Shown: piece after piece, positions 2,147 to 46,996 of the stretch
How the letters are laid out: every line of letters starts with the position of its first letter
How positions within the stretch are numbered: the first letter of the stretch is position 1
DNA from: a virus
UHGV virus genome: UHGV-0072281
Reading direction: 5' to 3' (one strand)
Length of the DNA: 64,000 bases
Notes under the pieces: model-generated
What the model was told of the DNA's origin: nothing
The model's database searches: none
The model's input: the letters and a program-made list of their open reading frames with translations, nothing else
Made by a program: the position numbers and the translations under genes

Positions 2147-4663
2147 ATGGAGGTGGACATGTTAAAAGTTGAACGTATTGTACTTAAAGGATTTACCGGA
2201 ATGGGGTTACACGAAATCGAAACCTTCGATTTTACTATCCATTCCCCGACCACCATTATCCTCGGTGGTAACGGCTGCGGTAAGACCAGTTTACTGTCCG
2301 TGTTTCTACCTATCGCACCTTCGAAATCCGAATTCCGTGACGGGGGTTCTTACACCAACATCTGTTTGGTTAACGACCATCGTTACAAGTTTAAGGTTGC
2401 GCGTAAAGGCAACTCACTGGTTTGCGATATCGAGAACCTGACGACGGGTACCAAAATCGTCGAACAAGGTAATGCGAAAGTGTATAACTCTCGTGTAGAA
2501 GAAATCACGGGTATTACAAAAGAGATTAAAGAGTTACTGAACGGAGAAGTGCTTTTAACGGATGCAGGAACGGAACTGCGTCGTAAGTGGTTCTACCGTT
2601 TAAGTACGTCAGACTTAACTTACGCGTTAGGTTTTTATCAACGTTTACGAAAAAACCTGACGATGTTAAACGGCGGTGTTGAAATCACCAGCCGCAAGAT
2701 TGCAGAGTTGCGCACTCGCGTGATTGATAACGAGGAAGAACGTCAGCAGTTAGCAACACGGTTAAAAGCATTAGAAGTAGATTTACGTGAACTCAACAAA
2801 CAGATTGAACAACTGCCGGGTCTGAATCGTGACGTTACGGCGGCAACGATTCAATCGCTATTGCTTAAAATCGAAGCACCGATTAATGCTATCTTGGAAC
2901 ACCGTGGCGGATTACCTACGGAAGAACAGGTAGAGGAAGCACGACGCGTTGAAGCCACTGCCCGTGAAGCGGTGGTCTCTGCTGAAACAGAACTGTCCAT
3001 GCTAAACAAAGATTTGTCTTTGTTGATGGACGAGTCTACCCGCCAAGATTACCTGATGCGGAATCACGAGGGGTTAAAGAACACGGTTGCAAAACTGCGT
3101 GAGTTATTAAAGCAGTGGGACACCGAACATCTTTTCCCTGAACTGTTTGCGGAGACCGTTAATATCGACCAGCTTAAAGCAGCGACAGATGCGCGTGTCT
3201 GGGGACAACGTTTAGGAACAACGCTGGATGCTATTAAATCAACGGAACGGTTGAACGTACTGGAAGAGAAACTGTTGACCTTAGACCAAAACTCATCTGG
3301 GTTGCGTGACCGACTACAACGCGTTGAAAACGTATTGCAGAACCTCAACCACGAACGGAATCACTATTTGGAAACCGCCGAGGTTGATTGTCCGCAGTGT
3401 CAATTTAAATTCCGTCCGGGTGTGCGTCGTTCTTTGCCTGAATTGGAAGAAGCCATTCGTGGACAAATGGAGCAACGTAATACGTTACAGACTCAGCTTG
3501 ATTCCGTATTGCGAGACCGTACGGAATTAGAGTCGGACGTTAACTACATGCGTCAAGTACGAGAAATCGTTTTAACGTACTCGAAAGACCCGGTATTGAG
3601 TTTGTTCTTTAAACGTCTCCAGGAGCGGAATGTCTTTACGGATAACCGCAGTCAATTCGGCAGTCTGTGCGCGGAGTTTGATCATGAACTTTATTCCGCA
3701 ATTGAATACCACGAAACGAAACACCGTTTTGCTAAAGCGGAAAAAGAGTGGGCAAACGCAGTTGCAGCGGTAGGTAACGTTGATGGCGCTCTACAGCAGA
3801 AAATTGCCTTCCAGCAGGAGCGTTTGGGTAAGGCGACAGAAACGCTCTCAGAGCGCCGTAGAGAGCACGCAGTTGCTAATGATACCTTTTGTTATCTAAA
3901 CGAACTTAAAGCCACTGTAGACAATTTTAATGCGGTTTTTGAGCGTTTAGAGAACGATGTTAAGGTAACATTAACCAACACAGTGGTCGAAACGTTATTA
4001 AACGCCCGAGAAAACAAGTTGGATGCGTTCACCACAGCACGGGAACGGTACCGTCAGATGGAAAACGAACTCAACCAACTTACTGCGTTAGAAAAGGAGT
4101 TATCGGATTTACAAGCGCAGCAATTCAATAACAAACTGATGATTCAAGCGTTCTCGCCCGAGAAAGGGGTATTACGCAAATACTTCTACAACGCTATCGT
4201 GAGAATCACAGAATTAATGACGCGGTATATCGAACAAGTCTGGACCTACCCTATGCGGGTCATGCCGTGTGACTTAACCGACGGTGACTTAGACTACACG
4301 TTCCCAGTGCAGTTAAAAACCCATCCTGAACCGGTACCTGACGTGCGGAAAGGGTCGAAAGCGCAGCGGGCCATCTTTAATTTGATGTTTCGTTTAACCG
4401 CTTACAAAGCCCTGAAACTTCATCAGTATCCGCTACTGTTGGATGAACCGTCAGAAGGGATGGATGAGGAACACCGAAATAACCTCGTCGGGTTTATTAA
4501 AACCCTGGCGAATTCCGGTGAGTTCTCTCAGTTACTGGTGGTATCTCACGAAGCAGAAATTCATTCAAAACTTAACGAAGCCGCATACTGTGTTATTGAA
4601 CCTGAAGGTATAACACTGCCTGCGGTATACAACGAGGGAGTAAAAATTGTCTACGCAAACTGA
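2147..4663 (+). CDS. Rad50/SbcC-like SMC-family recombination ATPase (T4 gp46-like)
   Basis: Walker A GGNGCGKTSLL near N-terminus; long coiled-coil-like middle with CPQC zinc-hook motif (~3389-3400); C-terminal Walker B/D-loop LLLDEPSEGMD. ORF track start 1982 rejected: it overlaps the upstream terminator; in-frame ATG at 2147 or 2159 preferred. Confidence 0.75.
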   Translation: MEVDMLKVERIVLKGFTGMGLHEIETFDFTIHSPTTIILGGNGCGKTSLLSVFLPIAPSKSEFRDGGSYTNICLVNDHRYKFKVARKGNSLVCDIENLTTGTKIVEQGNAKVYNSRVEEITGITKEIKELLNGEVLLTDAGTELRRKWFYRLSTSDLTYALGFYQRLRKNLTMLNGGVEITSRKIAELRTRVIDNEEERQQLATRLKALEVDLRELNKQIEQLPGLNRDVTAATIQSLLLKIEAPINAILEHRGGLPTEEQVEEARRVEATAREAVVSAETELSMLNKDLSLLMDESTRQDYLMRNHEGLKNTVAKLRELLKQWDTEHLFPELFAETVNIDQLKAATDARVWGQRLGTTLDAIKSTERLNVLEEKLLTLDQNSSGLRDRLQRVENVLQNLNHERNHYLETAEVDCPQCQFKFRPGVRRSLPELEEAIRGQMEQRNTLQTQLDSVLRDRTELESDVNYMRQVREIVLTYSKDPVLSLFFKRLQERNVFTDNRSQFGSLCAEFDHELYSAIEYHETKHRFAKAEKEWANAVAAVGNVDGALQQKIAFQQERLGKATETLSERRREHAVANDTFCYLNELKATVDNFNAVFERLENDVKVTLTNTVVETLLNARENKLDAFTTARERYRQMENELNQLTALEKELSDLQAQQFNNKLMIQAFSPEKGVLRKYFYNAIVRITELMTRYIEQVWTYPMRVMPCDLTDGDLDYTFPVQLKTHPEPVPDVRKGSKAQRAIFNLMFRLTAYKALKLHQYPLLLDEPSEGMDEEHRNNLVGFIKTLANSGEFSQLLVVSHEAEIHSKLNEAAYCVIEPEGITLPAVYNEGVKIVYAN

Positions 4664-18170: not shown

Positions 18171-18656
18171 ATGAACGTAAACGCAATCATTAATCTTTCT
18201 AATAGCGATATTATCCACGAGTTTCTAAACCACTGCGATCGGACGGAACAATCTATCCGTAACATGTTGGCACCGAAAACTGTGGATGCTATCTGGATGG
18301 CTTCGCAAGTAGCGAGTGTTGTTGCGGGCAGATATCGCGTATCCTTAGTGATGTGTCTGGACAATTTCTTCAACCAACCGGGACGTATTACCCAGACAGG
18401 TATCGGTAGAAGACTTTATGATGTTCGCATCGGAGCTTTCCATTCGATGATCACCGACTGGCACAACGGATACATGCCTGGTGCAATTATACCGTATACC
18501 GAACCAGAATGGCGTCGCTTTTATAGCCAAATCTTGGGTAATGAAAGCACGATTCATGAGATGATGACTATTATCAGTGCTGACCAAAGCCAACTTGCAT
18601 ACCAGCTATGGGAGTGGCTAAAAGCTAATTATCCTGATTACGTCAAAATCGACTAA
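18171..18656 (+). CDS. hypothetical protein
   Basis: 161-aa ORF; terminator follows. Confidence 0.5.
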   Translation: MNVNAIINLSNSDIIHEFLNHCDRTEQSIRNMLAPKTVDAIWMASQVASVVAGRYRVSLVMCLDNFFNQPGRITQTGIGRRLYDVRIGAFHSMITDWHNGYMPGAIIPYTEPEWRRFYSQILGNESTIHEMMTIISADQSQLAYQLWEWLKANYPDYVKID

Positions 18657-18662
18657 TACACA

Positions 18663-18694
18663 CCCTAGCTTCGGCTAGGGTTACTTTATATTTA
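18663..18694 (+). terminator. rho-independent terminator (ccctagc ttcg gctaggg + T-rich)
   Basis: 7-bp stem, TTCG loop. Confidence 0.55.
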
Positions 18695-18715
18695 ACCATT
18701 TTAGGAGAATATACC

Positions 18716-19648
18716 ATGTATTTGTACAAAAGTAAAAAAGTAAAAGGTATTAAAGACTGCCTTAGACAAATGGGGAGTCAGCATCTAGAAAATGTCATGG
18801 AAGAAAATCAAACAAAAGAAAATCCTGTCTCGAAATGGATAAAAAAGAATCGTAATCATCTAACCAATAGCTTTATACCGTATAATGAAGATTTAGGTCT
18901 CAAAGATCCACGTTCCCTTCACGCTCAAACATTGGCAATTGGATGGCTATACGGTGGTTCTTCCTTAATATCCGATCGAGCACTTAGAGAACTTGTTTTT
19001 GAGACTGAGATGCCCAGTAAATTCCCTGAAGAGTGGTTAGACTTTATACCTACTTGGACTGTAGCAATCGATGTAGGTAAAGAAGATGAGACTTTCTTTC
19101 TCGGCTATCGAAAAAATGGGAAGAGAAGGTTTATTATAATTGCTACAAATACTGATTACGGGTTAACAGAAGGCGTTACCACGATTGCCACTTGTTCGTT
19201 AGAGCTTCGTAGTGCAGGAAACGGACTTGTGGAAATCGACTATGCCGACGGTGTGGAGAACGAACAAGAAAAGATGCTATGGTTATCTCTGGCCAAAGCC
19301 GCCACATCGATGATATTTCTGTGCACCCTAATCCCACCTAATCTCAAAGCGTCTTACAATGACGTTAAGTTCAAAGAAATCAAAAAGAACGGCAGTATTA
19401 GCTACGAAGTCAAACCACGTGAACGTGATGTTAAAGTGGATATCACACCAGGACAAGTAAAATATCTGAAAGGATTCAACACCGACTTGAAAGCCATGCA
19501 AGGTATCAAACACGCTAAAGCTGCGCACATTCGTCGTGCCCACTGGCGTAGATACTGGGTTGGCCCAAGAAACGGTGAAAGAAAAAGAAAACTTTGCTGG
19601 ATTCCACCGACATTTGTTCGCGGCTACGTACCCCACACGCAAGACTAG
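18716..19648 (+). CDS. hypothetical protein, paralog family B, conserved basic C-terminal HIRRAHWRR motif
   Basis: C-terminus KAAHIRRAHWRRYWVGP...W.PP.F; internal LGWLYGG..ISD segment shared with next gene. Confidence 0.55.
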   Translation: MYLYKSKKVKGIKDCLRQMGSQHLENVMEENQTKENPVSKWIKKNRNHLTNSFIPYNEDLGLKDPRSLHAQTLAIGWLYGGSSLISDRALRELVFETEMPSKFPEEWLDFIPTWTVAIDVGKEDETFFLGYRKNGKRRFIIIATNTDYGLTEGVTTIATCSLELRSAGNGLVEIDYADGVENEQEKMLWLSLAKAATSMIFLCTLIPPNLKASYNDVKFKEIKKNGSISYEVKPRERDVKVDITPGQVKYLKGFNTDLKAMQGIKHAKAAHIRRAHWRRYWVGPRNGERKRKLCWIPPTFVRGYVPHTQD

Positions 19649-19658
19649 GAGAATTATA

Positions 19659-20543
19659 ATGTTAAGACGCAGAATTTATGGAGACACGCTTCGACGTATT
19701 AGTGAAGCTATAGAGACTGCACACAAAGACTTGTTTGGTCTGAAAGAAGATCGTTTTCTAACGTTTGTCAGGGAACACAAGAGGCAACTTCCCGTAACCT
19801 TTCTGCCCGTTAACGACCCAACGTACCGTGTGTTCGGCACCACCAAACAGGTGCCGTATTCTATCCGTCAATCGTTAGGTTTGGGCTGGCAATACGCAGG
19901 TATTGAAATTATCTCTGATAACGAGTTGATGGCGTTACTTGCAGACACTGAACGTTTAACGGATATTCCGTACGCGTGGATTGAAGCCATCCCTTCGTTC
20001 ACCTTTTCCGTGACTGTCAAGATTAACGAACTTCCTGCTACACTCTTTATCGGTCGTCGTAAATTCGAAGGTGAAGAAGTATTGTTCGTTTTACGATGGG
20101 TGGAGATAAATCAGCGGCACTGTTGGACAACCAAGATTTATCGGTTCAACAGAAAGGCAGATGACTTTGTTAGTTTAGAGCCTTACTTTGCTAACGAGTC
20201 AAAGGACGAGGAACTTCTGGATGAGGTACATATCGGTTTATATCTTTCCTCGCGGGTGAAGAAATCAGAACGCGAGCGACGGGAATACCGTGGTAGAACG
20301 ACACGTTACGTACCTGATACAGAAATCCTTCCACGCAGAGAACCTGTCGTTGTTGACGTAAGTCCAGTACAACGCGAAGACTTAGAGAAACAACGCAGGG
20401 AAGGCAGGAGAATCTGTTTAACGCCGCATCGCGCAGCACACATACGCAGGGCACATTGGAAACGGGTCTGGTGTGGGCCAATGACAGGCCCACGCTGGCA
20501 GGAGTGGCGATGGATTGCACCCGCCTTTATTTCCGGATTTTAG
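19659..20543 (+). CDS. hypothetical protein, paralog family B
   Basis: C-terminus RAAHIRRAHWKRVWCGP...W.AP.F; start moved to internal ATG 19659 with AGGAG RBS (track start 19536 overlaps upstream gene). Confidence 0.55.
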   Translation: MLRRRIYGDTLRRISEAIETAHKDLFGLKEDRFLTFVREHKRQLPVTFLPVNDPTYRVFGTTKQVPYSIRQSLGLGWQYAGIEIISDNELMALLADTERLTDIPYAWIEAIPSFTFSVTVKINELPATLFIGRRKFEGEEVLFVLRWVEINQRHCWTTKIYRFNRKADDFVSLEPYFANESKDEELLDEVHIGLYLSSRVKKSERERREYRGRTTRYVPDTEILPRREPVVVDVSPVQREDLEKQRREGRRICLTPHRAAHIRRAHWKRVWCGPMTGPRWQEWRWIAPAFISGF

Positions 20544-20560
20544 CGTGAAAATAAAGATTA

Positions 20561-20607
20561 CCCCTAGACCTTGTGGTCTAGGGGTAGCTTTTACTTTTTA
20601 TTTTTTG
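20561..20607. terminator. bidirectional terminator (cccctagacc ttgt ggtctagggg + T-run) between convergent genes
   Basis: perfect 10-bp stem; T-run overlaps stop of minus gene. Confidence 0.6.
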
Positions 20608-35957: not shown

Positions 35958-38159
35958 TTATCGCGCTTGCGGTAGGAAGATGTTCGCGATTTGTCGTGCC
36001 GGGATAACATCCAACGCAGCGTTGATGAAACTCCCCTGCGACCACGCAGATGCCCAGTTCTGCGCCCAGATAGAAGCGTTAATCTTAGCGCGGGCGATAC
36101 CGTTAGTACGTTCGTACAACGTAGCACCACCTAAACACGCCATAAACTCACTGAACTTGTTATCGTCATCCCAGACCTTAGTGTCGGTCACAATCGGCAT
36201 GTACATGACGCGAGTCAAATCACGAATAGTAACAGAAATATCGCAGGACAGTGGAACACTATCACCAGGACGCCAACCTAGACCACCTACACCGAACTGT
36301 AAGGACATCGACGTTACCATTGCATTACGGAACGAGAAACGTCCTTGAGAGTAACACTCTAAGTAAAACGGATGGGTAAAGGTTTGTTTACCGGTTGCGA
36401 TCGGACACACTGCTGCAATCCAAAACGAGAGCGGGACTAACAAATCCTGGAAAATGTCCAGGTCGTTACCCGACCAACAACGTAAAGGAATGGTTAAAGT
36501 AATGTCATCTCCCGATGCGTCAGAACTATCCCAGACTTCTGGGAAGTCTATCACTGAGGAGTTGTACAACGACATTATCCCCGTCAAATGTAGGGTGTCT
36601 GCAACGCCTCGCATCGCTGACTTAATACCGGAAACTAAAGCATCGACCGCACTAAAACCGGTTTGACCGCCAGACAGGTTAACTTCCAGCGAACGTGCTT
36701 TTGCTGTTGCGGAGTTTACCATCCCGGAAATTTCAGGTTCTTTCGTGGAGTTAGAGAACGAACGCGAAACGGTGTCTTTACCGTCAATACGCCAAGTAAC
36801 CCACTGTGAACCGTTCTTAATCTCCGACAAGACGTTATCGCCAACGTCTGCAACCATATCGGTAAACTCTTTAAAGAACGTTCCTACTTTGGATTCATCT
36901 TTACCTTTGTTCATCCAATCTTGAACTTCAGCAATATCTCCTTCGGTAAGATCTTCTGGATTCTTTTCATCCAACGTAGAGTTCAGCTGCTTAGCTGCCG
37001 CTGCACGTTTCTCCATAGCCTGACGGGTTTTCTCCTGCTCTGACTGAATCTCTGCTGCTCGCTGCTGTAATTCAGTAGCAGTCCCCCCGACCACCAAGCT
37101 ATTACTCATCTGGCCAATCAATTGGTCTTCCTGAGTATCAATGTCCTGTATAGAGGAGGCATACCCACCCTTTTCACTTCTGGCAACTTTCTCCAAGTCG
37201 TATAACGAAACTTCAAATCCTTCTGCTTTCTGTCGTACACGATCGCTATAAGTAGCATTATAGTAAAACGCGCGCAAACGACTGGCAAACAACTCTTCAT
37301 CGTCGCCGGATTCTACACGAATCATATCGATGGTTTTAGCCTGATAGTTCGCCAAGGTCTGGTAACGGTTAATCATTCGGTAAATGTCAAACTCACCATT
37401 CGCTTTCCAGACTTCTGGTAAGGATTTATACCACTCTTCACGATCTTTATGGTAGCTATTTTCTTTGCTTTCGGTATCGTAACCCAACGCAAAAGTCCCT
37501 AACACACCCGTTGGCACTAAACGACGATAAATTAGCTGGGTGTTCAGGATGTTTTGCACAGCGCGTAAATACAGATGCATTGCGGGCTTAACGTAATAGT
37601 ATCTTGACGTTTCTTTATTCAGTGCTGCCGAAAGAATCCTCGGTGTAATCAGAATCACCGCGAATGCTACAGTACCAACCGTCGCCCAAATAGCGGCCGC
37701 ACCGATATACGAAGCTGCTGTTCGAATAATTCCTGGATAGTCACCTGTACGTGCGAGGTATGCCAGGTTAGAATCGTACATGTTCGCAAAGAACGAAGCC
37801 ATACCCAGATACTTCGGCTTACCGAAACGACAATGAACGTAAAATGAGTTTTGGCTAATGCTTTCGTAGTAATACGTCCCTAAACGATAAGACCCTGCGG
37901 CTGAGGAGTTATAAAAGGATTCACTACCGCTCTTAGTCGCATCGGGTTGTGCAAACGCGCCTGTTGAGGAAGGGTCTGCAAAAAGTGTAAACTGGGGCGG
38001 ACTATTAATCGCTTTACTGCCACCGACTGTGGTGTCTTCAAACGACAACATACCACCGGAATAGCGGCGCAAGGCCAGGAAACGTTCATCTCGACCATCG
38101 ACTGCGCCATTAAATAGGTTTTTGACCCAGCTTGAGTCGTTAACTGTTCTAGCGTCCAC
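35958..38159 (-). CDS. hypothetical large protein (733 aa, probably structural)
   Basis: long ORF directly downstream of the giant gene on the same strand. Confidence 0.55.
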   Translation of the reverse strand: MDARTVNDSSWVKNLFNGAVDGRDERFLALRRYSGGMLSFEDTTVGGSKAINSPPQFTLFADPSSTGAFAQPDATKSGSESFYNSSAAGSYRLGTYYYESISQNSFYVHCRFGKPKYLGMASFFANMYDSNLAYLARTGDYPGIIRTAASYIGAAAIWATVGTVAFAVILITPRILSAALNKETSRYYYVKPAMHLYLRAVQNILNTQLIYRRLVPTGVLGTFALGYDTESKENSYHKDREEWYKSLPEVWKANGEFDIYRMINRYQTLANYQAKTIDMIRVESGDDEELFASRLRAFYYNATYSDRVRQKAEGFEVSLYDLEKVARSEKGGYASSIQDIDTQEDQLIGQMSNSLVVGGTATELQQRAAEIQSEQEKTRQAMEKRAAAAKQLNSTLDEKNPEDLTEGDIAEVQDWMNKGKDESKVGTFFKEFTDMVADVGDNVLSEIKNGSQWVTWRIDGKDTVSRSFSNSTKEPEISGMVNSATAKARSLEVNLSGGQTGFSAVDALVSGIKSAMRGVADTLHLTGIMSLYNSSVIDFPEVWDSSDASGDDITLTIPLRCWSGNDLDIFQDLLVPLSFWIAAVCPIATGKQTFTHPFYLECYSQGRFSFRNAMVTSMSLQFGVGGLGWRPGDSVPLSCDISVTIRDLTRVMYMPIVTDTKVWDDDNKFSEFMACLGGATLYERTNGIARAKINASIWAQNWASAWSQGSFINAALDVIPARQIANIFLPQAR

Positions 38160-38204
38160 TTTCTACCTCTTTAAGATGGGGGTGGTTTCCCACCCCCGTG
38201 TTTA

Positions 38205-41200
38205 TTAACCCGCACGTCTAACGTTAAGCTGTCGTGCTGGCTGTTCAACGGACATTTGTCGTGATGCTGAGCCTGCTGGTGCCATAGGTTGGGTCGATAC
38301 GGTGTTTTGTACCGGCTGCGGACGTTGTTTAAGAATCGTGACAATCTCTCTGAGATACCCCGCCGATTCTTTCGCAACAGCCAACTGCTGGACACTAATC
38401 GGATCACCGCTACTGAGTGTAGGCCCGTTTTGTGCATCAGAAGTAACCGCAGGTGCCGGTTTACTCGTTGCTGCTACGCGCTGCACAGCGCCTTCTTTCA
38501 CCTTCTCGACATCTTCTTCAGGCAACCCTTCGTTTCTAGCTCCAGCCGCAACGGTCTCCGCAATCGTAGAGGCGTCGCCGCCAGCACTACTACCGCCAGG
38601 TGACGGTACTGCCGGACCACCACTGGTTGCAGCTTTGACATTGTCTGCACCCATCGCACCTTTCTCTGCTAACGCATCGTCACGACGCGCAGCATTCGAT
38701 GCGGGCAAGTTATCCGTCGCTCCAGAAATTGATGGATCGTTAGCTGCTCCTGCTGCTACCGCTGGAGAGGAGGCAACCGCAGGCGTTAGCCCTTTCACCA
38801 TGTCTTTCGTTGAAGCTGGGTTAGCCGCAATTTCGTTTGTCGCCACAGCACCCATACGGCGGTTCAGTTCATTAATAACTTCGCCAACAGTACGAATACG
38901 AACAATCTGTTCGCCTCGCATTTCGTAGAAGACTCCCTTATTACCTCTAAGGATTTGAGGAGTAATACCTTCTGCTTTGTCGGCTGGCATGTTCGGATTC
39001 TGCCGCCATGCATTAAGGAACTTCTTACCACCGCCTGGACCCAAGAAGTGATACAGATACGCAACAGCCGGGGGCGGTTCTACACCACCCAGGTCTTTCT
39101 GCGCCTGCATGATATTATCACGAATAAACTGTACCCCGAGGATGGTATTTGCCCACGGGTCATACTGGTTTACTTGCGGAATACCGTACCGACGAGAATA
39201 CCCCTTCATCATTCCAGACCACGTACTGTCGATGAACTGGAACAACCCTGCTGCTGACGCACCTGGGTTCTTGACGCCGTATCTGAAACCAGATTCAGCT
39301 TTCGCCATCGCAATCGCAATCGCAGGCGGAACACCTAAGGTATTTGCGACATCTGCAATCATTGCTTTAACGCCTTCTACGTTAGGTGTCTTACCACTAC
39401 CCAGTTTACTGATTGGATATTTCTCAGCCAAGGTTTTGTAATCACCTTCTTTGACGTCCCCGAGTTTAATCCCGGATTGGCCCGTAGAGAACTTCGCGTA
39501 ATTGCTGATCCCCATCTCACCCACAACTTGAGATAAGTCACCCGGTGTACCGTAAGACGACCCACCGTTTGGCAAGTACCCATCGTTAGACGCTGTACCC
39601 CAATCAACGACACCTTTAAAGCGTTCTTTGCCATCTTCGTCGGTTTGGTACATTCTCGTCGCACGATCGGCTTTCTGCCACTTCGCACGTTTACCTGCTG
39701 CGGGAGTAGAGCGCAGGGTGTTACGAACAGCCAGGTCAGGTTCTTTTGACAGTTCTTTCAGGTTGGCAAGTTCAGTAGCAACAGAACCTGCATCAGTGTT
39801 TGCTTCCTCGCCTAGCGGGTTGAATGGAATCTCCCACACGGACTGTCGAATACCGCCCTTCATGTTGTAAGCGCCACGAATCATCAACGCCAATTCGTAC
39901 ATGAACCCACCGGATACTTTCAATTCGGTAGGGTCTGCTTGCGGAATGTAACGTTTCAGACCAACGACGTAGGTCATATACGCCGGTAAGAAACGGTTGT
40001 AGAACCAGTTCTTACAACGCTCCTCTTTAGGACCACCTATCAAGTCAGGCGAGATAACCGCAATGGCTTCTTTCCAGTTGCCTTTATAGGTACAGTTCTT
40101 CACATCAATGTCTTTCAACACGTTCTTCTCTAACAACGTGAAAAGATTACGCGTTGTTTGGTTGATAGTAACCGCACCGTAGGTTTTCCACCTGACCGAT
40201 TCCAGGTCTTCCAAATCGCTTTTCTTCGGTAATGAATGCCAGTCAACTTGGATTTGAACCTGCTCAGTCCCGTCTTCCCATCCTTCAACCTTCGCAACTT
40301 TCTCGTTACGTTCAGCATCCGCATTCGCCAATACCTGACTGGTTTCAGCAACGGACGCAATTTTGTGGCCTTCGACAGCGTCACGCATACCTGAACGTTG
40401 TTTCCGTTTGTCGTCAGTACGCATGTTGATTGACCGCCACACACGTTCCTGTGCTTCGACAACCTCTTCCCCTGACAAGAACTCTGCCGGAGTAAAGGTA
40501 ACGAAATCCCACGCTTTAGAGAACCAACCCTGGTTAACTTTACGCGGGTCAGTCAACGAACGGAATTCCGCAGAATCTTTACCCATCTTCATTTTGTTGT
40601 AGAGGGTAATCATATCCGCTTTCGACACTTTCTTCGGATCACCAACATCTGCCAAAGCGATATCGTTATCCATAGACTTCAGTGCTGAAATCCAACGGAG
40701 GTAAATCGGTGCGAAACGTTGTAACATAAACGCAGTAAATGCTAACATCTCACCACGTTCTTCCAAGTTTACACCAAACCCTTCTGCGAGTTTCTTCACG
40801 TCTTCGGAAGACAAGCCACGTAATTGTGCTTCACCCCCTTCGGTATACGAGACGTAAGGTTTCAAAGCGTCTTCTAAATAACGGGCTTTCATACCGTCTT
40901 CAGAAGACCACTGGTCGTAGTCACGGAAACCGTATTGTGCCAGACGCATATAGTCGAGGTACTGCGCTTTCACACGGGTAGCGCATTTATACGCCCAATA
41001 ACCCAGACCAGCGGCAGTCGCACCGATCACAATTGCAGGCCAACCCACCGCAGCTACCACCGTAGATGCAGCCGAGGCTACCGCAGTCACCGCCGGAACC
41101 GCTAAACGCTGTACGGCAAACTTACCAACATTCCACGCTGCTTTACCGAGGAACCCGGTAGGTTTAAAAATACCCCACTTCGCAACTTTACCCAGTATGG

Positions 41201-44200
41201 AACCCACCGTACCTAAGATACTCACGATTGGTCCTACCAACGGTAGCCCTTTGAGGAAGTCCATCACCCCGCCTTTACGTCCTTTCTGTTCGGCGGATTT
41301 CTTGGCTTTCTCTTCTTCCTTAGAACGTCTACGACGACGGAAGAATTGGAAGTAGTCGCGTTTTTCATCATTGGCTGCCGGTTTGTTACGTTGTCCGAAC
41401 TTACTGAACATCGTACGAATCAAGCCATCAGGCGCACCAGCACGTTCCGCAGAGTCGCGCATGGTGTTAAACCAGGACATTTCCTGGAGGTTAACCATCC
41501 GGTTTAAACGTTCCAGTAATGCTGAACCAACACTTTTCGCTTTCTGCTTACCTTTGTTGATAACGCGTCCTGCGCTATCCGTTGCGGTTTCGAAATCCTC
41601 TTTCGCTGCGTTAATCACGCGTGTTGGAGAAACCTTACCACGGGCGTATAAGTGTTGACGGTAAAACTCAGCAACGTCATCGTCACGGCCTGCTAAACGA
41701 GACTCCGTCCGATAGCGAGTACCGATATCGTAGCGTGGATCGCGGAAGCTATCTACCGTTTCGCCAAAGCGTCCACGGAAACGGTCAAACCAGCCTTTAC
41801 CCGCAGCACCCCAACGAGACAGTCTATCACCAACTCCCTGACGGAAACGTGAGAATCGGTCACGTTGTCTGCCTCGCCAATCCCGGAAATTCTGGAAATA
41901 GTCTTTAAACCCGTCGCGGAAATCCTTAACGCGGTTAAGCATCCCTTTGATAGATTTCGACCCAACGTTTTTCTCCAGTTGCTCCGTCCAGGATTCATCT
42001 TCAGGCTCACCATCTAAACGACGGTTAAGGAGTTTATAGATGCGAATCAGGATATGGTTGGTCTTACGGCCATTCGACCAGGAGAACATGCTGAAACCGC
42101 CGCCAGAACCCCCATCCTTACGATTCTGCCACCACCGGGTAAGCGGGTTGTCGGTCGCTAACTCTTTGAATTTCTCAAAGCCACGTTTTGCATTGTTCCA
42201 CAAACGAGCGGGCATTCCCGTTACACGGGAAATCATGCTTTGTAAACGTGTTTTCTCACTGCCTTCAGGAATCTCGTTAAGCCACTCACGTGCTTTCTCG
42301 AAGATAGACGCTGCTCTTGGTGAGATTAGACCAATAAGTTTCTTCGGTAAGTTAACGGCTTTGTTTACCGCTGTACCTGCTTTACCGGAGATATACTGGA
42401 ACAGGGCCTGGAGTTTACCGCCTTTATAGAAGCGCAGTTTACCCGCAGCCGCTAAGTCCGCCGCTGCGAGAATCAAGTTCCCGGCTTCGTCAACAATATC
42501 ACGACCCAGCTTAATGTCGTCTAACGAGCTGAGTTGTACCAGCTTGTTGGTTTTAGGGTCAGCCTGATAATACTCACCTGCCTCTAAACGGCTTCCTTGT
42601 AAAACAACATTGCCTTTCTCGTCGTAGATGTCTCGAACACCAAGAACGCCTTTCCCGAACGCTACTGCTGAATTCCAGCCTGTGGACAGCGTACCAGTAA
42701 CTAAACCTTTCAGTCGTTCAAAAACACCTGGACCGTCAGAAGACCCACCGGAGAATTTCCCACGGATAAAACTGCCCAGTGACTGTAAACGCCCTTTCCC
42801 TCTCAGGAACATGTTCTTCGCAAAACGACCAGCGCCCGTACCGGTGTCCCAAAGTACACCCGCCCAACGACGGAACAGCCCACTTTCACCAAGCACAATG
42901 CGCTTACGTTTGCGTTTGTTACCGGTACTACCCGCGTCTTCAGATGCGTCACCCTCACCGTCACGACCACCACCTAAGCTTGCCAACAGAATACCTTCTT
43001 CATCCATGTTCTTGACATGTTTCAGAATTTCCTGCACGGTGTTGGATTCGGATTTGTTACGGATAGCATCAACGATTCTATCAAACTGTTGCTCTAAACC
43101 CGCATTAGTGTCAGGCCGTTCGCTTAACAGTTCAACAAAGTTGGTGGATTTTTCACCGTAGAGGACAGCAGCAAGTTGTCGTGCTGACAGCCCACGGCCA
43201 CCACGTCCACCTTTACCTTTAACGGTGTCAATAGTCGACTCGTCACCGGTTACGGAAGCGTCTACACCCAAACGACGTAAGTAGTCACCTAGCGCAGAAC
43301 CGTTTTTCAGTTTGCGCTGGATTTCTTGCTCACGGGTTAACGAACGACCAGAGCGAGTTTTCCCCATGGCCAGGTCGTTGTATAGCGTATACGGATCGTT
43401 AATGTCTTTATCTACATCAAACCGATCGTTCTTCGCATCGTACTTAAAGATACCTGCGTCACGTAACGCATTCTCGCCGTAGATAATTGAGGCTTCGTCT
43501 ACCGTGTTTTGACGTGCACGAATTGTTGACTGAATAGCTGAAATCTTACCAGCAATCTCGTTGCTCAGTTCGTGATGACCGCCTGCCAGTTCTGAAGACC
43601 GTGCTTCTAAGACCGCCTGAATCGCTTCTACCGCGTTCGCATTCATGTAACGATACATGTGCATCGGGTCTTTCAGCAGACTGCCTACGTCGAATGCCTT
43701 ACCTTCAGACGCACGGGATTCGATATAGTCCGCCAGCGCCTGGCGAGTTTTCGAATCCAGAGTTTTGTCTTTGTCGATAAAGTCAACGGTTTCGTTAATG
43801 TACTGCTGTAAACGTTTACGCTGTTCGTCATTAGCAACTGCCTTACGTACGCGATTGCCAATAACTTTACGATCCACCATACCTCGCGTGGTCAGGTCAT
43901 AAACCTGATCGTGGTGTTCGCCATATCCACGACGAATAGATTTGTTAATCTCCGTCAGCAAGGTCGGGATGACTTCCGTGATGCTAAGATATGCTTTACG
44001 GTCGAACTTCGCTGCTGCTGATAACGCCTCTGCTGAACGTTCTTCTAAAGCTAATCCCTCACGACGCAGCGGTGTCACTAACCCCATCTCGTGCATTAAA
44101 CGGAAGACAGTGGCCAATGGACCATCTATCTCACCAGCAATCGCTGAGTTAGAGATAGAAGATAAGTTACCGAACCCGTAGCGTGCCAACTGAAGCCGTT

Positions 44201-45338
44201 TCATGACTTCTGGGTTCTTTTCTAACTCACTGCGTGTCCAGTTCTGTAAACGTTCTACTTGCGGTTGTAAGAATCGTTTTGCTAACCAACCACCGGCAAA
44301 CCCTACGACTTTACCTCGGCTATTCGTACGACGACGTTCTGGCGACAGTGAAGAACTGTCTTCCATGTCGAAGTCGTCTTCCTGACCCATTGACAGAACT
44401 TGTTCTAATAGCCCACGTCCGTCACTGAAGATATTCGAAATCTTTTTCTTCGCGTTCTCACGGATTTGTTCAACGAACGAATCTGCGTAACGTAAGGGGT
44501 TCATCCATTCGGCAGCTTTACGTTTTACGTTAGCCCAACGAATTTCAGAGAATTCCTCTTTTGCATAATCCGGCAACGCGGTGTTTTTAACAATCGCTTC
44601 AAGTGCCGGAGTGTTACGGCTAAACTCGTCCTGTTTAAGTTTAGCAATATCTTGCAACGCGAATAACGTACGGTATTGCAGCTCTAGCTGTTTACGCTGA
44701 ACGTTAAGCATCACCCCACGACTTAAACTGGTCGTCAGGTTAACGTCTTTCGCAATACCGATAACCGTCTGGAACAGCGCATCGGACTTCATGTCCTTGA
44801 TGGTGTCACGAAGACGGTCTTCTACCATCCCTTCCTGAACTTCACGTTGCTGTTCAGGTGTTTGTGGGGTACCCGCAAAAACAGTGTCTAACTCACGATC
44901 CATTAATGCCTGTTTAGGATCGTAATTCCCGTAATCGTACTGGTCGCTTTTCGCCCATTTATCGATCTTACGGGTTACACTGTCAGGCAAATACCGTTTT
45001 AGGGTTGGGCCTAATTGACGAGCTTGTGCCTTCACCACGCGGGAGGTCTTTTCAATCTCGTCTTTCGTATGGGCCAGAATGTCTTGACCTGCGGCTTTGA
45101 CGTTCTTATAACCTTCATAAGCGTCAGACGCCGGTTTTGGCATTCCTTTTAAAATGACCTGATCACGTTTATTTTCGGGCCAGATAGTCGACAATGCCGA
45201 CTTACGGGCAGCACGAAATGTGTCCATGACCGGGTTACGCGATTGGTCTTGTTGACGAGGGGGCTCATCAAAATCGTCCCAGTCGTCCATGTTATCAAGA
45301 TCGATTTCATCGAAATCGTCTTTACCTTTTTTAGCCAT
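38205..45338 (-). CDS. giant virion-type protein (2377 aa) with lytic transglycosylase (SLT) domain, TM segments and low-complexity regions
   Basis: SLT motif AKAESGFRYGVKNPGASAAGLFQFIDSTW (about 38900-39330); hydrophobic block LPLVGPIVSILGTVGSILG...AIVIGATAAGLGYWAY (about 40980-41290); acidic N-terminus DDFDEIDLDNMDDWDDFDE; Arg-rich repeats; Ala/Pro/Ser-rich C-terminus. Confidence 0.7.
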   Translation of the reverse strand: MAKKGKDDFDEIDLDNMDDWDDFDEPPRQQDQSRNPVMDTFRAARKSALSTIWPENKRDQVILKGMPKPASDAYEGYKNVKAAGQDILAHTKDEIEKTSRVVKAQARQLGPTLKRYLPDSVTRKIDKWAKSDQYDYGNYDPKQALMDRELDTVFAGTPQTPEQQREVQEGMVEDRLRDTIKDMKSDALFQTVIGIAKDVNLTTSLSRGVMLNVQRKQLELQYRTLFALQDIAKLKQDEFSRNTPALEAIVKNTALPDYAKEEFSEIRWANVKRKAAEWMNPLRYADSFVEQIRENAKKKISNIFSDGRGLLEQVLSMGQEDDFDMEDSSSLSPERRRTNSRGKVVGFAGGWLAKRFLQPQVERLQNWTRSELEKNPEVMKRLQLARYGFGNLSSISNSAIAGEIDGPLATVFRLMHEMGLVTPLRREGLALEERSAEALSAAAKFDRKAYLSITEVIPTLLTEINKSIRRGYGEHHDQVYDLTTRGMVDRKVIGNRVRKAVANDEQRKRLQQYINETVDFIDKDKTLDSKTRQALADYIESRASEGKAFDVGSLLKDPMHMYRYMNANAVEAIQAVLEARSSELAGGHHELSNEIAGKISAIQSTIRARQNTVDEASIIYGENALRDAGIFKYDAKNDRFDVDKDINDPYTLYNDLAMGKTRSGRSLTREQEIQRKLKNGSALGDYLRRLGVDASVTGDESTIDTVKGKGGRGGRGLSARQLAAVLYGEKSTNFVELLSERPDTNAGLEQQFDRIVDAIRNKSESNTVQEILKHVKNMDEEGILLASLGGGRDGEGDASEDAGSTGNKRKRKRIVLGESGLFRRWAGVLWDTGTGAGRFAKNMFLRGKGRLQSLGSFIRGKFSGGSSDGPGVFERLKGLVTGTLSTGWNSAVAFGKGVLGVRDIYDEKGNVVLQGSRLEAGEYYQADPKTNKLVQLSSLDDIKLGRDIVDEAGNLILAAADLAAAGKLRFYKGGKLQALFQYISGKAGTAVNKAVNLPKKLIGLISPRAASIFEKAREWLNEIPEGSEKTRLQSMISRVTGMPARLWNNAKRGFEKFKELATDNPLTRWWQNRKDGGSGGGFSMFSWSNGRKTNHILIRIYKLLNRRLDGEPEDESWTEQLEKNVGSKSIKGMLNRVKDFRDGFKDYFQNFRDWRGRQRDRFSRFRQGVGDRLSRWGAAGKGWFDRFRGRFGETVDSFRDPRYDIGTRYRTESRLAGRDDDVAEFYRQHLYARGKVSPTRVINAAKEDFETATDSAGRVINKGKQKAKSVGSALLERLNRMVNLQEMSWFNTMRDSAERAGAPDGLIRTMFSKFGQRNKPAANDEKRDYFQFFRRRRRSKEEEKAKKSAEQKGRKGGVMDFLKGLPLVGPIVSILGTVGSILGKVAKWGIFKPTGFLGKAAWNVGKFAVQRLAVPAVTAVASAASTVVAAVGWPAIVIGATAAGLGYWAYKCATRVKAQYLDYMRLAQYGFRDYDQWSSEDGMKARYLEDALKPYVSYTEGGEAQLRGLSSEDVKKLAEGFGVNLEERGEMLAFTAFMLQRFAPIYLRWISALKSMDNDIALADVGDPKKVSKADMITLYNKMKMGKDSAEFRSLTDPRKVNQGWFSKAWDFVTFTPAEFLSGEEVVEAQERVWRSINMRTDDKRKQRSGMRDAVEGHKIASVAETSQVLANADAERNEKVAKVEGWEDGTEQVQIQVDWHSLPKKSDLEDLESVRWKTYGAVTINQTTRNLFTLLEKNVLKDIDVKNCTYKGNWKEAIAVISPDLIGGPKEERCKNWFYNRFLPAYMTYVVGLKRYIPQADPTELKVSGGFMYELALMIRGAYNMKGGIRQSVWEIPFNPLGEEANTDAGSVATELANLKELSKEPDLAVRNTLRSTPAAGKRAKWQKADRATRMYQTDEDGKERFKGVVDWGTASNDGYLPNGGSSYGTPGDLSQVVGEMGISNYAKFSTGQSGIKLGDVKEGDYKTLAEKYPISKLGSGKTPNVEGVKAMIADVANTLGVPPAIAIAMAKAESGFRYGVKNPGASAAGLFQFIDSTWSGMMKGYSRRYGIPQVNQYDPWANTILGVQFIRDNIMQAQKDLGGVEPPPAVAYLYHFLGPGGGKKFLNAWRQNPNMPADKAEGITPQILRGNKGVFYEMRGEQIVRIRTVGEVINELNRRMGAVATNEIAANPASTKDMVKGLTPAVASSPAVAAGAANDPSISGATDNLPASNAARRDDALAEKGAMGADNVKAATSGGPAVPSPGGSSAGGDASTIAETVAAGARNEGLPEEDVEKVKEGAVQRVAATSKPAPAVTSDAQNGPTLSSGDPISVQQLAVAKESAGYLREIVTILKQRPQPVQNTVSTQPMAPAGSASRQMSVEQPARQLNVRRAG

Positions 45339-45367
45339 AACGTTTAATCCGTATCAGGAGATTTAGC

Positions 45368-46993
45368 GTGAATAAACTTAATTGGGTTGACTTTTATCTG
45401 CTCAATGTAAACAAGTCTCTTGTGTCGCGATTACGACCCGTCACGACCACAGATACTTTTCAAGGGTTGACAAAAAACTTTCACCCTGAAGGGTTGTACT
45501 CCACGGAGATATTCGGTCTTACGGGAAGTGAAGCCCGAGACTCAATGTTTTCTTACATTGATATTAAATTAGATATCATTTCGCCGACGGTGTGTTTGGC
45601 GTTATTCCAACTAAAACAACTCTACGAAGAAATTTGTTCTGGAAAACGCTACGCAACCTGGAGCGAAAAAGAAAAAGATTTTGAACCGGCTTTGCCTGGC
45701 GACGCTGGCGCAGATACCGGTTTTAACTTTTTCCTTAGTCACTACAACGACTTAAAACCCGGACGTAACGAATCGTTACAACGTGACGAAACGGTGGATT
45801 TCTTCGAGAAGTTCCGTCCCGTGAGTCTTAGCCGCTATGTTCTCGTATTACCCGCGGGTTTACGTGATTTGGTGGTTAGACAAGACGGTAGGGAACAGGA
45901 AGAGGAAATCGGTGGGTTATATCGTCGTTTGATTTCTTTGGCCAGGGCGATTCCTGACCGCGCTACACGGGTTGAATTAACGAACCCTGTACGATGGAAA
46001 CTCCAACAAACCTTTAACGAAATCTGGATGTACTTCTTTAACATCCAGGACGGTAAAGGTGGCTTCCAACGTCGTAAAGTGACGTCGCGTAAACTGATGA
46101 ACGGGACACGTAACGTATTGTCCTCATTCTCCACAGGCTCTAAATGCATGGGGCGTGAGGATGCGATTCGACCGACCGACACCAAAATTGGTTTGTATCA
46201 GGGTCTGAAAGCGTTGCTACCTGTTGCGCAATACCAGATACGTGAACGTTACCTCGGTAACATTCGTGCTGGCGATGGCAACCTTTATGGCGTAAACACC
46301 AAAACGCTTAAACGCGAGTTCTTGGAGGTTGGGGGTCGTGTTTACGACACCTTTACCACAGACGACGGTATCGAAACATTAATTAACCGGATGGAAGCTC
46401 GCGAGCTTCGTCATCAACCGTTAATGATTAACGATACCCATTACGTCGCGCTGGTCTACCAAGACAACAAACATTTTAAGGTGTTCTACGATATCGACGA
46501 ACTGCCTAAAACGTTTGACCGTAAAAACGTCCACGGAATGACCCTGGTAGAATTACTCTACTTATCGGGTTACGAACTGTGGAACAATTATTTCGGTTTC
46601 GTTACACGTTATCCCGTCACCGGTCGAGGCTCGACGTACTCATCGACCATAAGATTGGAGACCACCACGTCATCTTTATACCTAAAAGAACTGGAGGATG
46701 ACTGGGAGACTGAAAAGCCACACGGAGCTATCAGTTATCCTGACAGGACGGTTCCGACCTTTGTCGAGTCGATGGCACCGCACCCGTCACGATTGGGTGG
46801 CTTAGGGGGTGACTACGATGGTGACACCGGTTCACTTAACGCGCCTATGTCGCAAGAAGCACTCGAGGAAAACCGTAACTGGATACACTCGAAGAACTAC
46901 TGGTTCGATTCTGACGGGAATTTCAAAATCAATCCTGTCAACAACGTGATTAAACGTGCGACGCAAGCGTTATTAAAGAATCCAAAAGGCTAA
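45368..46993 (+). CDS. multisubunit RNA polymerase beta-prime-like subunit, N-terminal part (split beta-prime; GTG start)
   Basis: blocks parallel E. coli beta-prime as recalled: HPEGLYSTEIFG (ERDGLFCARIFGP), VLVLPAGLRDLVVRQDGRE..GGLYRRLISL (VLPVLPPDLRP..DLNDLYRRVINR), GKGGFQRRKV (GKQGRFRQNLLGKRV), GGDYDGDTGSLNAPM (NADFDGDQMAVHVPL); zinc-ribbon cysteines absent. Confidence 0.75.
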   Translation: MNKLNWVDFYLLNVNKSLVSRLRPVTTTDTFQGLTKNFHPEGLYSTEIFGLTGSEARDSMFSYIDIKLDIISPTVCLALFQLKQLYEEICSGKRYATWSEKEKDFEPALPGDAGADTGFNFFLSHYNDLKPGRNESLQRDETVDFFEKFRPVSLSRYVLVLPAGLRDLVVRQDGREQEEEIGGLYRRLISLARAIPDRATRVELTNPVRWKLQQTFNEIWMYFFNIQDGKGGFQRRKVTSRKLMNGTRNVLSSFSTGSKCMGREDAIRPTDTKIGLYQGLKALLPVAQYQIRERYLGNIRAGDGNLYGVNTKTLKREFLEVGGRVYDTFTTDDGIETLINRMEARELRHQPLMINDTHYVALVYQDNKHFKVFYDIDELPKTFDRKNVHGMTLVELLYLSGYELWNNYFGFVTRYPVTGRGSTYSSTIRLETTTSSLYLKELEDDWETEKPHGAISYPDRTVPTFVESMAPHPSRLGGLGGDYDGDTGSLNAPMSQEALEENRNWIHSKNYWFDSDGNFKINPVNNVIKRATQALLKNPKG

Positions 46994-46996
46994 TCA

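Follow-up and report, generated by a model that had tools for sequence, protein, structure and literature searches.

Two adjacent genes, A and B, found in the window (the whole 64-kb stretch of DNA analysed here) are diverged members of the AcrVA2/FinQ family (Pfam PF26125 'AcrVA2-like'). They occupy a fixed hotspot of SPN3US-like nucleus-forming (Chimalliviridae-type) Enterobacterales jumbo phages, at which the number of family copies is 0, 1 or 2. We consider it moderately probable that the pair forms an accessory cassette whose products act as two-step silencers of specific targets. The family itself is known; new here are the hotspot with its changing copy number and a modular divergence between near-identical phages. 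The features are collected in Table 1.

Table 1. Features of the A-B locus (positions in the window).
Feature	Position	Strand	Basis or remark
G+C-rich hairpin followed by T-rich tract, upstream of A	18662..18681	+	terminator-like site
Shine-Dalgarno TAGGAGAAT of gene A	18702..18710	+	read from sequence
Gene A, AcrVA2-like, 310 aa	18716..19648	+	open reading frame
Gene A aa 73-87 (LAIGWLYGGSSLISD), conserved N-terminal block	18932..18976	+	profile alignment to AcrVA2
Gene A aa 136-180, hypervariable beta-strand segment of the middle domain	19121..19255	+	candidate specificity determinant
Gene A aa 269-301, C-terminal signature AAHIRRAHWRRYWVGP...WIPPTFV (H271, R273, H276, W281, G283, W295, P298)	19520..19618	+	invariant columns
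Shine-Dalgarno TAGGAGAAT of gene B	19646..19654	+	9-mer identical to that of A
Gene B, AcrVA2-like, 294 aa, paralog of A	19659..20543	+	BLASTP against A, E 1e-25; PHROG 6160, E 2e-21
Gene B aa 73-87 (LGLGWQYAGIEIISD), conserved N-terminal block with W77, D87	19875..19919	+	conserved columns
Gene B aa 259-291, C-terminal signature AAHIRRAHWKRVWCGP...WIAPAFI (H261, R263, H266, W271, G273, W285, P288)	20433..20531	+	invariant columns
Bidirectional terminator-like hairpin, 13 bp, between gene B and the convergent 251-aa gene	20558..20587		right cassette edge

A and B are complete paralogs

The initial annotation described tandem paralogs of about 300 aa at 18716-20543, and this description holds. 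Both open reading frames are present, and BLASTP aligned their products over the full length, at E 1e-25 and with 25% identity across 280 aa. The two are thus complete paralogs, related far beyond chance, and not one split gene. Divided by segments of A, the identity is 19% over aa 1-70, 37% over aa 71-135, 6% over aa 136-215, 20% over aa 216-260 and 47% over aa 261-310. The shared stretches are those that the initial annotation named. Both proteins have, at aa 73-87, the block L(A/G)(I/L)GW.Y.G..(L/I)ISD; the C-terminal motif AAHIRRAHW(R/K)R.W.GP ... W I. P. F lies at aa 269-300 of A and 259-290 of B. Gene conversion was rejected as the source of this identity because of the codons used: the final 43 aligned codons hold 21 identical residues, the same codon being used for 7 of them, and synonymous sites there are saturated between A and B (pS 0.94). 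Therefore, the motif has been kept at the protein level.

The longest open reading frame of B opens at a GTG at 19536. The true start is the ATG at 19659, because the same Shine-Dalgarno sequence as that of A precedes it and gene callers give 294 aa on related contigs. The stop codon of A provides the first three bases of the Shine-Dalgarno sequence of B, so translational coupling of the two genes is possible.

It might be supposed that one gene has been broken by a sequencing error, or that the pair is a recent duplication with one copy decaying, since the two frames are adjacent on the same strand, the longest frame of B overlaps the end of A, and B carries a premature stop on one metagenome contig. 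This can practically be dismissed. Each protein spans the whole family profile, from the N-terminal block through the C-terminal motif; A and B each have their own Shine-Dalgarno sequence and ATG; the intact pair occurs in at least nine independent assemblies; and both copies are under purifying selection (dN/dS 0.03-0.28; for B, 0.03-0.08). A split by sequencing error, named in the initial annotation as a possible refutation, is thereby ruled out, and two full-length genes stand.

Membership in the AcrVA2-like family

The motif had at first been assigned to no known family; that family is PF26125. Near-identical relatives carry PF26125 on both genes, with the strongest confidence mark; in them the A copy is 72-95% and the B copy about 98-99% identical to that of the window. 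When gene A alone was compared with the PDB, it matched AcrVA2 (7ci1_A) at E 1.8e-4. A 16-sequence profile matched AcrVA2 at E 6.2e-10 (profile positions 75-303, chain residues 72-317), and an alignment of 42 retrieved representatives matched it over its full length at E 5e-44. The family is very large, as the profile search yielded 5124 cluster representatives. The fold of A also agrees with the AcrVA2 crystal structure, with three parts of which the last is a small four-stranded sheet.

Gene B is the more divergent of the two. No AcrVA2 match was obtained in PDB searches with B alone or with a three-sequence profile of its clade, and Foldseek with the predicted model of B gave no significant match. 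Its membership therefore rests on its homology to A, on the match to PHROG 6160 (E 2e-21), on PF26125 in the relatives, and on hhalign, by which the B clade aligns with distant family members at 97% probability (E 1e-10). In SPN3US-like phages, the PHROG 6160 members now called hypothetical proteins can be annotated as AcrVA2-like. Scans of A, B and their relatives against Pfam-A, NCBIfam and PADLOC returned nothing useful, the miss in Pfam-A being due to a copy that lacks PF26125; PADLOC matches to mREase_IV (E 0.013) and DpdD (E 0.044) were taken as noise.

Conserved residues of the C-terminal signature and the N-terminal block

The C-terminal signature of A, for which a four-stranded beta-sheet is predicted, aligns with HIRRGHWHGYWQG...W.P.vFV of AcrVA2. 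In this alignment the H-x-R-x-x-H residues (H271/R273/H276 of A, H261/R263/H266 of B) correspond to H286/R288/H291 of AcrVA2, and each of the three is 100% conserved in 146 distant representatives. It was demonstrated previously that alanine mutants of H286/R288/H291 lose down-regulation of Cas12a mRNA and protein while still co-precipitating Cas12a (bioRxiv 10.1101/2022.11.29.518452). That the retained motif marks a functional site, as had been proposed from its conservation, is supported, and the motif is largely a common feature of a characterised family, the very outcome that the initial annotation had set against its own reading. Since the motif residues are those that AcrVA2 needs for mRNA loss, an RNA-related role in A and B is plausible.

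The position of AcrVA2 H293, two residues past the last histidine of the motif, is occupied by R278 in A and K268 in B. It is a histidine in 98% of the retrieved family, and Q, H, C or R in the SPN3US-like clade. Judged from the alignment, we regard this loss as a deviation that does not disqualify A and B, and the chemistry of the site may differ. A HEPN-type RNase, with R-x(4-6)-H in an all-alpha-helical domain, was also considered and was ruled out by motif spacing and secondary structure.

In the N-terminal block, W77 and D87 of both A and B align with W79 and D89 of AcrVA2, mutants of which show partial loss of function. Conservation across the wider family is 99% for W77 and 82% for D87. 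The family consensus of the block is AWRxTQGIYRFD, and the AcrVA2 counterpart is AWRNTLGIYQLD.

Modular divergence of A and B

The segment aa 136-180 is the least conserved in every comparison (42% among A alleles, 38% among B alleles, 7% between A and B). Against near-identical relatives, its nucleotide identity in A is 55-59%, while that of the flanks is 95-100%. It can be seen in three relatives with such flanks that aa 1-215 of A are 58-61% identical, whereas aa 216-310 are 99-100% identical; for the Enterobacter ludwigii allele the corresponding values are 61% and 100%. Gene B likewise has a second allele class, at 62-63% identity. Synonymous sites have diverged further in the variable part than in the flanks (pS 0.44-0.73 versus about 0.1), which points to exchange of alleles by recombination; by itself it is no proof of diversifying selection on a binding surface.

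This pattern would fit a protein in which recognition lies in a variable part and the effector function in a constant one. For the AcrVA2 family, a C-terminal domain common to the members with divergence toward the N-terminus has been described (Marino et al., bioRxiv 10.1101/2022.11.29.518452). The peptide-binding pocket of AcrVA2 can be tied to aa 136-180 only approximately, through the alignment positions of E98, D129 and D195, and a triple mutant of that pocket had no effect in vivo (bioRxiv 10.1101/2022.11.29.518452). From the near-total difference of A and B in aa 136-180, the two proteins probably act on two different targets.

A hotspot with zero, one or two copies

The relatives of the window phage belong to Chimalliviridae. 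In SPN3US and phiEaH2 the site is empty; SaP7, EC001, Asesino, Machinavirus and Alexandravirus have one copy; and two copies are found in the lineage of the window only, the window holding no others within its 64 kb. SaP7 and EC001 are of the same species as SPN3US, from which they differ at the site by a clean indel of about 1 kb, and their own alleles are just 40% identical to each other. The locus is accessory and polymorphic.

The single-copy genes (Asesino gp235, SaP7 ULF48428, EC001 MGA_211, ChrisDB gp236; PHROG 6160), annotated merely as hypothetical proteins, share family and motif with A and B. They lie at the same site, with small upstream genes on one side and the convergent 251-aa gene ahead of UvsX on the other, but as one copy instead of two and at 24-30% identity to A or B. 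A neighbour-joining tree did not decide which of the two is orthologous to the single-copy gene: it paired A with B in 54% of bootstraps and placed A with the single-copy clade in 41%.

Hairpins mark both edges. The one upstream of A, on the left, resembles a terminator for the operon before it; SaP7 and EC001 have analogous hairpins ahead of their single copy. The equivalent of the hairpin beyond B lies 3' of the single-copy gene in SaP7/EC001 and is present at the empty site of SPN3US. A promoter scan gave matches not above those in shuffled sequence and was left unused. Nucleus-forming jumbo phages thus carry the AcrVA2-like family as a dispensable, swappable cassette, which points to a role in conflict rather than in core replication.

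Proposed mechanism and alternative functions

By homology, A and B most likely work as AcrVA2 does. In a first step, the variable N-terminal and middle domains would bind a specific polypeptide, probably the nascent chain on the ribosome. In a second step, the constant C-terminal four-stranded domain with its H-x-R-x-x-H-W would trigger loss of the mRNA being translated, and the target protein would not be made. We infer nascent-chain recognition, mRNA destruction and the identity of the targets by transfer from one family member at 11-19% identity, AcrVA2. Translation-dependent, polypeptide-specific down-regulation of mRNA is established only for AcrVA2 and AcrVA2.1, and even for AcrVA2 the published mechanism does not yet name what degrades the mRNA (bioRxiv 10.1101/2022.11.29.518452).

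A and B may instead be true AcrVA2-type anti-CRISPRs that shut off synthesis of host Cas12a, as the homology to AcrVA2 and the common functional motif would allow; huge-phage proteins clustering with AcrVA2 have been proposed as Acrs in the literature. We hold this to be quite improbable. The family typically occurs in bacteria without Cas12a (Marino et al., bioRxiv 10.1101/2022.11.29.518452). The identity to AcrVA2 is low, and conservation is poorest in the putative recognition part. In the hosts of this phage group (Enterobacter, Erwinia, Salmonella and E. coli), type V-A systems are rare, which also counts against it. In addition, the relatives belong to a family of phages whose nucleus-like shell already protects DNA from DNA-cutting CRISPR, and two highly diverged copies with swapped alleles are ill-suited to one conserved target. 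Cas12a is therefore an unlikely target of A and B; host defence factors, other host factors or the proteins of competing mobile elements are more likely.

Another explanation would do without mRNA decay: A and B would be stoichiometric binders of mature proteins, as inhibitors or adaptors, and the basic motif a general anchor to RNA, DNA or the ribosome. We regard it as unlikely, though less so than an action on Cas12a, because binding by AcrVA2 alone is not inhibitory, its motif mutants bind and fail to inhibit, and AcrVA2 leaves DNA cleavage in vitro unblocked. A role as virion or packaging proteins, the basic tail binding the genome or serving for incorporation or localisation, is hardly credible. 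The basic composition is the sole point in the tail itself in its favour, together with the annotation of some neighbouring genes in relatives as virion structural. No sign of the packaging or localisation signal offered in the initial annotation was found: the gene is missing at the same site in SPN3US and phiEaH2, alleles inside one phage species can be as dissimilar as those of SaP7 and EC001, the family extends across plasmids and many kinds of phage, and the motif has another, demonstrated role in AcrVA2.

Returning to two-step silencing, a more far-reaching version can be put forward only tentatively. The cassette would be a pair of retargetable silencers directed by nascent chains, in which the H-x-R-x-x-H domain is the effector and aa 136-180 pick a target from the host or a rival element; modules would be swapped by recombination at the hotspot, against cytoplasmic defences that the shell around the DNA cannot stop. 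If this is true, both the specificity code of the family and its targets could be read from natural pairs of alleles in which nothing but the variable module differs, such as A of the window and the E. ludwigii allele.

Comparison with known systems

AcrVA2 (Moraxella bovoculi prophage; PDB 7CI1/7CI2; Marino et al., bioRxiv 10.1101/2022.11.29.518452) is so far alone among bacterial proteins in being reported to recognise a peptide and then destroy the specific mRNA that encodes it. Its gene adjoins acrVA1 in a prophage, whereas A and B form a tandem pair in a virulent jumbo phage; A has Arg and B has Lys in place of its H293, and the host range of this phage makes its target, Cas12a, unlikely here. 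The locus offers a natural experiment: two paralogs are neighbours, and near-identical phages carry pairs of alleles in which the presumed effector is the same and the presumed recognition part has been replaced.

When 72,556 plasmids were searched with A by tblastn, the sole match was a jumbo-phage genome misfiled as a plasmid. The family nevertheless has a plasmid-borne member, FinQ (fertility inhibition, IncI-type E. coli plasmids), a homolog of AcrVA2 with the same conserved HxR motif, which lowers the mRNA of F-plasmid transfer genes (bioRxiv 10.1101/2022.11.29.518452). FinQ acts on a co-resident plasmid, while A and B are borne by a phage. Its likeness to A and B, seen through the published description, is that of a family member with a target other than Cas12a, in Enterobacteriaceae and in a conflict between mobile elements.

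Family assignment of genes A and B

Genes A and B, two adjacent genes of the window, were read in the initial annotation as tandem paralogs. This was borne out, as the proteins are 25% identical over 280 residues (BLASTP, E 1e-25) and each is complete. A single gene split in two was rejected, because both A and B span the family profile from end to end. The longest open reading frame for B starts at a GTG (19536) and overlaps A, but the predicted true start is the ATG at 19659: the Shine-Dalgarno 9-mer TAGGAGAAT lies upstream of it, an identical 9-mer lies upstream of A, and gene callers also gave B 294 aa in related contigs. The Shine-Dalgarno sequence of B begins with the stop codon of A (TAG, 19646-19648). 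From this overlap and the hairpin on either side, the pair looks like one compact unit.

Features of the window (positions in the window)
Feature	Position	Strand	Remark
161-aa gene	18171-18656	+	just upstream of gene A
Hairpin	18662-18681		upstream of gene A
Gene A	18716-19648	+	ORF, 310 aa
Deviating codon of gene A	19547-19549		residue 278
Gene B	19659-20543	+	ATG start, 294 aa
Deviating codon of gene B	20460-20462		residue 268
Hairpin, 13 bp	20558-20587		3' of gene B; bidirectional terminator-like
Higher-G+C block	36000-45400	-	
Tail-fibre/transglycosylase-like gene	38205-45338	-	2377 aa; in higher-G+C block
Higher-G+C block	45368-51163	+	
Tail sheath gene	59952-62009	-	

Scans of A and B against local Pfam, NCBIfam and PADLOC gave nothing. 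Pfam-A hmmscan, with a copy evidently lacking the PF26125 model, gave no match for any family member, so that the local Pfam scan alone would wrongly call members of this family orphans. Both proteins fall in PHROG 6160 (function unknown). When A was searched against the PDB with phmmer, the sole match was AcrVA2 (7ci1_A, E 1.8e-4), an anti-CRISPR acting on Cas12a, and the match crosses the C-terminal motif (HIRRAHWRRYWVGP...WIPPTFV in A, HIRRGHWHGYWQG...WQPAVFV in 7ci1_A). A profile built from A, B, their metagenomic orthologs and jumbo-phage homologs matched AcrVA2 with E 6.2e-10 (profile positions 75-303, chain residues 72-317). In the precomputed annotation of a large protein collection every homolog carries the PF26125 label, and a contig look-up gave PF26125 "AcrVA2-like", with the strongest confidence mark, for both members of the pair in relatives. 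A search with a profile across 1.84 billion cluster representatives retrieved 5124 family members at E <=1e-3 (3700 at E <=1e-10), and an alignment of 42 of those retrieved matched AcrVA2 over its full length (E 5e-44).

Gene B is the more divergent of the two. It gave no direct match in the PDB, alone or as a clade profile, and its model gave no significant Foldseek match. It is linked to the family by its similarity to A and its PHROG 6160 match; B genes that share about 98-99% identity with that of the window carry PF26125, and hhalign against distant family members gave a probability of 97% (E 1e-10). Membership of A in the AcrVA2-like family is close to certain, and that of B highly probable.

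Conserved blocks and experimentally tested residues

Identity between A and B is unevenly distributed. Along A it is 19% at residues 1-70, 37% at 71-135, 6% at 136-215, 20% at 216-260 and 47% at 261-310. Predicted secondary-structure elements follow one another in the same order in both proteins. Two conserved blocks pointed out in the initial annotation, an internal LGW.YGG..ISD and the arginine-rich C-terminal motif, were found exactly as described. Over the last 43 aligned codons, the same codon is used at 7 of the 21 identical residues, with synonymous sites at saturation (pS 0.94). Gene conversion as the source of the motif identity was therefore rejected; these values indicate that the motif is kept by selection at the protein level.

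AcrVA2 brings down both the mRNA and the protein of Cas12a by a factor of more than ten, an effect that needs translation and the amino-acid sequence, not the codons, of the Cas12a N-terminus. Residues conserved across the family, FinQ included, were mutated in it: H286A, R288A and H291A abolish the effect but retain co-precipitation of Cas12a, and W79A and D89A cause partial loss of function (Marino et al., bioRxiv 10.1101/2022.11.29.518452). Equivalent residues were assigned with an offset read from alignments (PDB chain = paper numbering + 1). H286, R288 and H291 correspond to H271, R273 and H276 of A and to H261, R263 and H266 of B; W79 and D89 correspond in both proteins to W77 and D87, which are the W and D within the LGW.YGG..ISD block. 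Among 146 distant family representatives, the H, R and H of the motif are each conserved in 100%, as are P104 and P112 (A numbering), and W77, W295 and P298 in 99%. These equivalences and this conservation indicate that both blocks are a family signature coinciding with the tested residues. The earlier argument that such conservation marks a functional site is thus sound. The family, left unassigned there, has already been described and curated (PF26125), with the motif as its hallmark.

After "HW", at the position of AcrVA2 H293, 98% of the 146 distant family members have His, but A has Arg and B has Lys; within the SPN3US-like clade, Q, H, C and R all occur at the position equivalent to A 278. 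This suggests that the effector site of the clade may differ from that of the rest of the family.

The phage and its relatives

The window derives from a jumbo phage. Among its genes are those for split multisubunit RNA polymerase beta subunits, UvsX, RNase H, a tail sheath and a 2377-aa tail protein. Of named phages, the window is closest to the Erwinia phages of Erskinevirus (about 75% nucleotide identity over the start of UvsX and two genes upstream), and its gene order is common to Seoulvirus (SPN3US) and Machinavirus. Seoulvirus and Erskinevirus belong to the Chimalliviridae, the nucleus-forming phages. IMG/VR contig UViG_3300014543_000002 is 100% identical to the window's locus. NZ_CP134650.1 (222,441 bp), a close relative, is recorded as a non-mobilizable plasmid, 'plasmid unnamed1', of Enterobacter ludwigii. 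Over the region examined, however, it has the gene order of the window (exonuclease, RNase H, AcrVA2-like pair, UvsX). Almost certainly, the record is the genome of a jumbo phage that the bacterial isolate carried or with which it was co-assembled. Its filing under this species suggests Enterobacter as the host genus.

The higher-G+C block (0.49-0.51 against about 0.43 elsewhere) has a negative GC skew and also holds a virion-related gene of 733 aa; next, on the plus strand, come two genes for RNA polymerase beta subunits of the phiKZ-like phage type.

Copy number at the AcrVA2-like site

The site is bounded by a small upstream gene and a convergent 251-aa gene that precedes UvsX. It holds no copy in SPN3US (gp213 directly abuts gp214) and phiEaH2, and one copy in SaP7, EC001, Asesino, ChrisDB and SNUABM_4; Alexandravirus has one copy with different neighbours. 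Two copies occur in the window's lineage only, also among 37 IMG/VR loci with a family member. A clean indel of about 1 kb, in flanks 92-98% identical, separates SPN3US from SaP7 and EC001, which are assigned to its species; the alleles of SaP7 and EC001 are just 40% identical to each other. Taken together, these observations argue that the gene is dispensable and exchangeable, as is typical for accessory genes of conflict. A neighbour-joining tree, in which 54% of bootstraps placed A and B as sisters, gave no decision on whether the duplication is specific to the window's lineage.

At one locus (IMGVR_UViG_3300003177_000020, 3340-4213) the AcrVA2-like gene is spread over two overlapping ORFs, apparently through a frameshift rather than as a tandem pair. 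At another (metagenome contig ERZ27318539 k141_26687, 1268-2080) the B copy has a premature stop at codon 24 (AAA to TAA), with 98% identity to B over the remainder; either one population carries a pseudogene or the contig was misassembled.

Modular divergence among near-identical phages

Within eight relatives (amino-acid identity of UvsX 96-100% and of the 251-aa gene 92-100%), variation is concentrated locally in the A + B cassette. In the three closest aligned genomes (NZ_CP134650.1 and the relatives' loci L011 and L015), nucleotide identity in 150-nt windows is 55-70% across 18240-19360 and mostly 95-100% outside this patch, the background being regained at about 19360. Residues 1-215 of A are 58-61% identical in three relatives, and residues 216-310 are 99-100% identical in the same relatives; for B, identity is 98-100% in six relatives, and in a further two it is 62-63%. 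Synonymous sites of the variable part are also more diverged (pS 0.44-0.73, compared with about 0.1), which points to exchange of cassette alleles by recombination and not merely to fast evolution in place, and the breakpoints vary from relative to relative. Residues 136-180 are the least conserved stretch in every comparison (identity of 42% among A alleles, 38% among B alleles and 7% for A against B). Overall dN/dS of A and B is 0.03-0.28, indicating that both copies are functional.

The 161-aa gene, which had no PHROG or Pfam match, is hypervariable across near-identical relatives (41-100% amino-acid identity, against 96-100% for UvsX), and SPN3US has it though without an AcrVA2-like gene. 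Its mosaic pattern is independent of that of A: in L011 it is 94% identical (nearly 100% over the first two-thirds) and A just 72%, while in L015 it is 73% identical and A 95%.

Proposed mechanism and targets

In AcrVA2 target binding is separable from the effector step, only binding surviving the motif mutations, and among its homologs the C-terminal domain is retained, with divergence toward the N-terminus (bioRxiv 10.1101/2022.11.29.518452). The same split is seen in A and B, both between paralogs and between alleles. On this analogy, the most likely mechanism is that A and B would each recognise a different polypeptide, probably nascent, and that the constant H-x-R-x-x-H domain would bring about loss of the mRNA encoding it; we put the chance that the AcrVA2 mechanism applies to A and B at about even. 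New here are the tandem arrangement, the chimallivirus hotspot with 0, 1 or 2 copies, and natural allele pairs in which the putative effector part is constant and the putative recognition part replaced. These could help to find the targets and specificity determinants of a poorly understood family.

Cas12a, on which AcrVA2 itself acts, is an improbable target of A and B, because the family occurs mostly in bacteria without Cas12a (bioRxiv 10.1101/2022.11.29.518452), the hosts are Enterobacterales, identity of A and B to AcrVA2 is only 11-19%, and nucleus-forming phages already have a shield against DNA-cutting CRISPR systems. A precedent for a target other than Cas12a in enterobacteria is the plasmid homolog FinQ, which lowers the mRNA of F-plasmid transfer genes (bioRxiv 10.1101/2022.11.29.518452).
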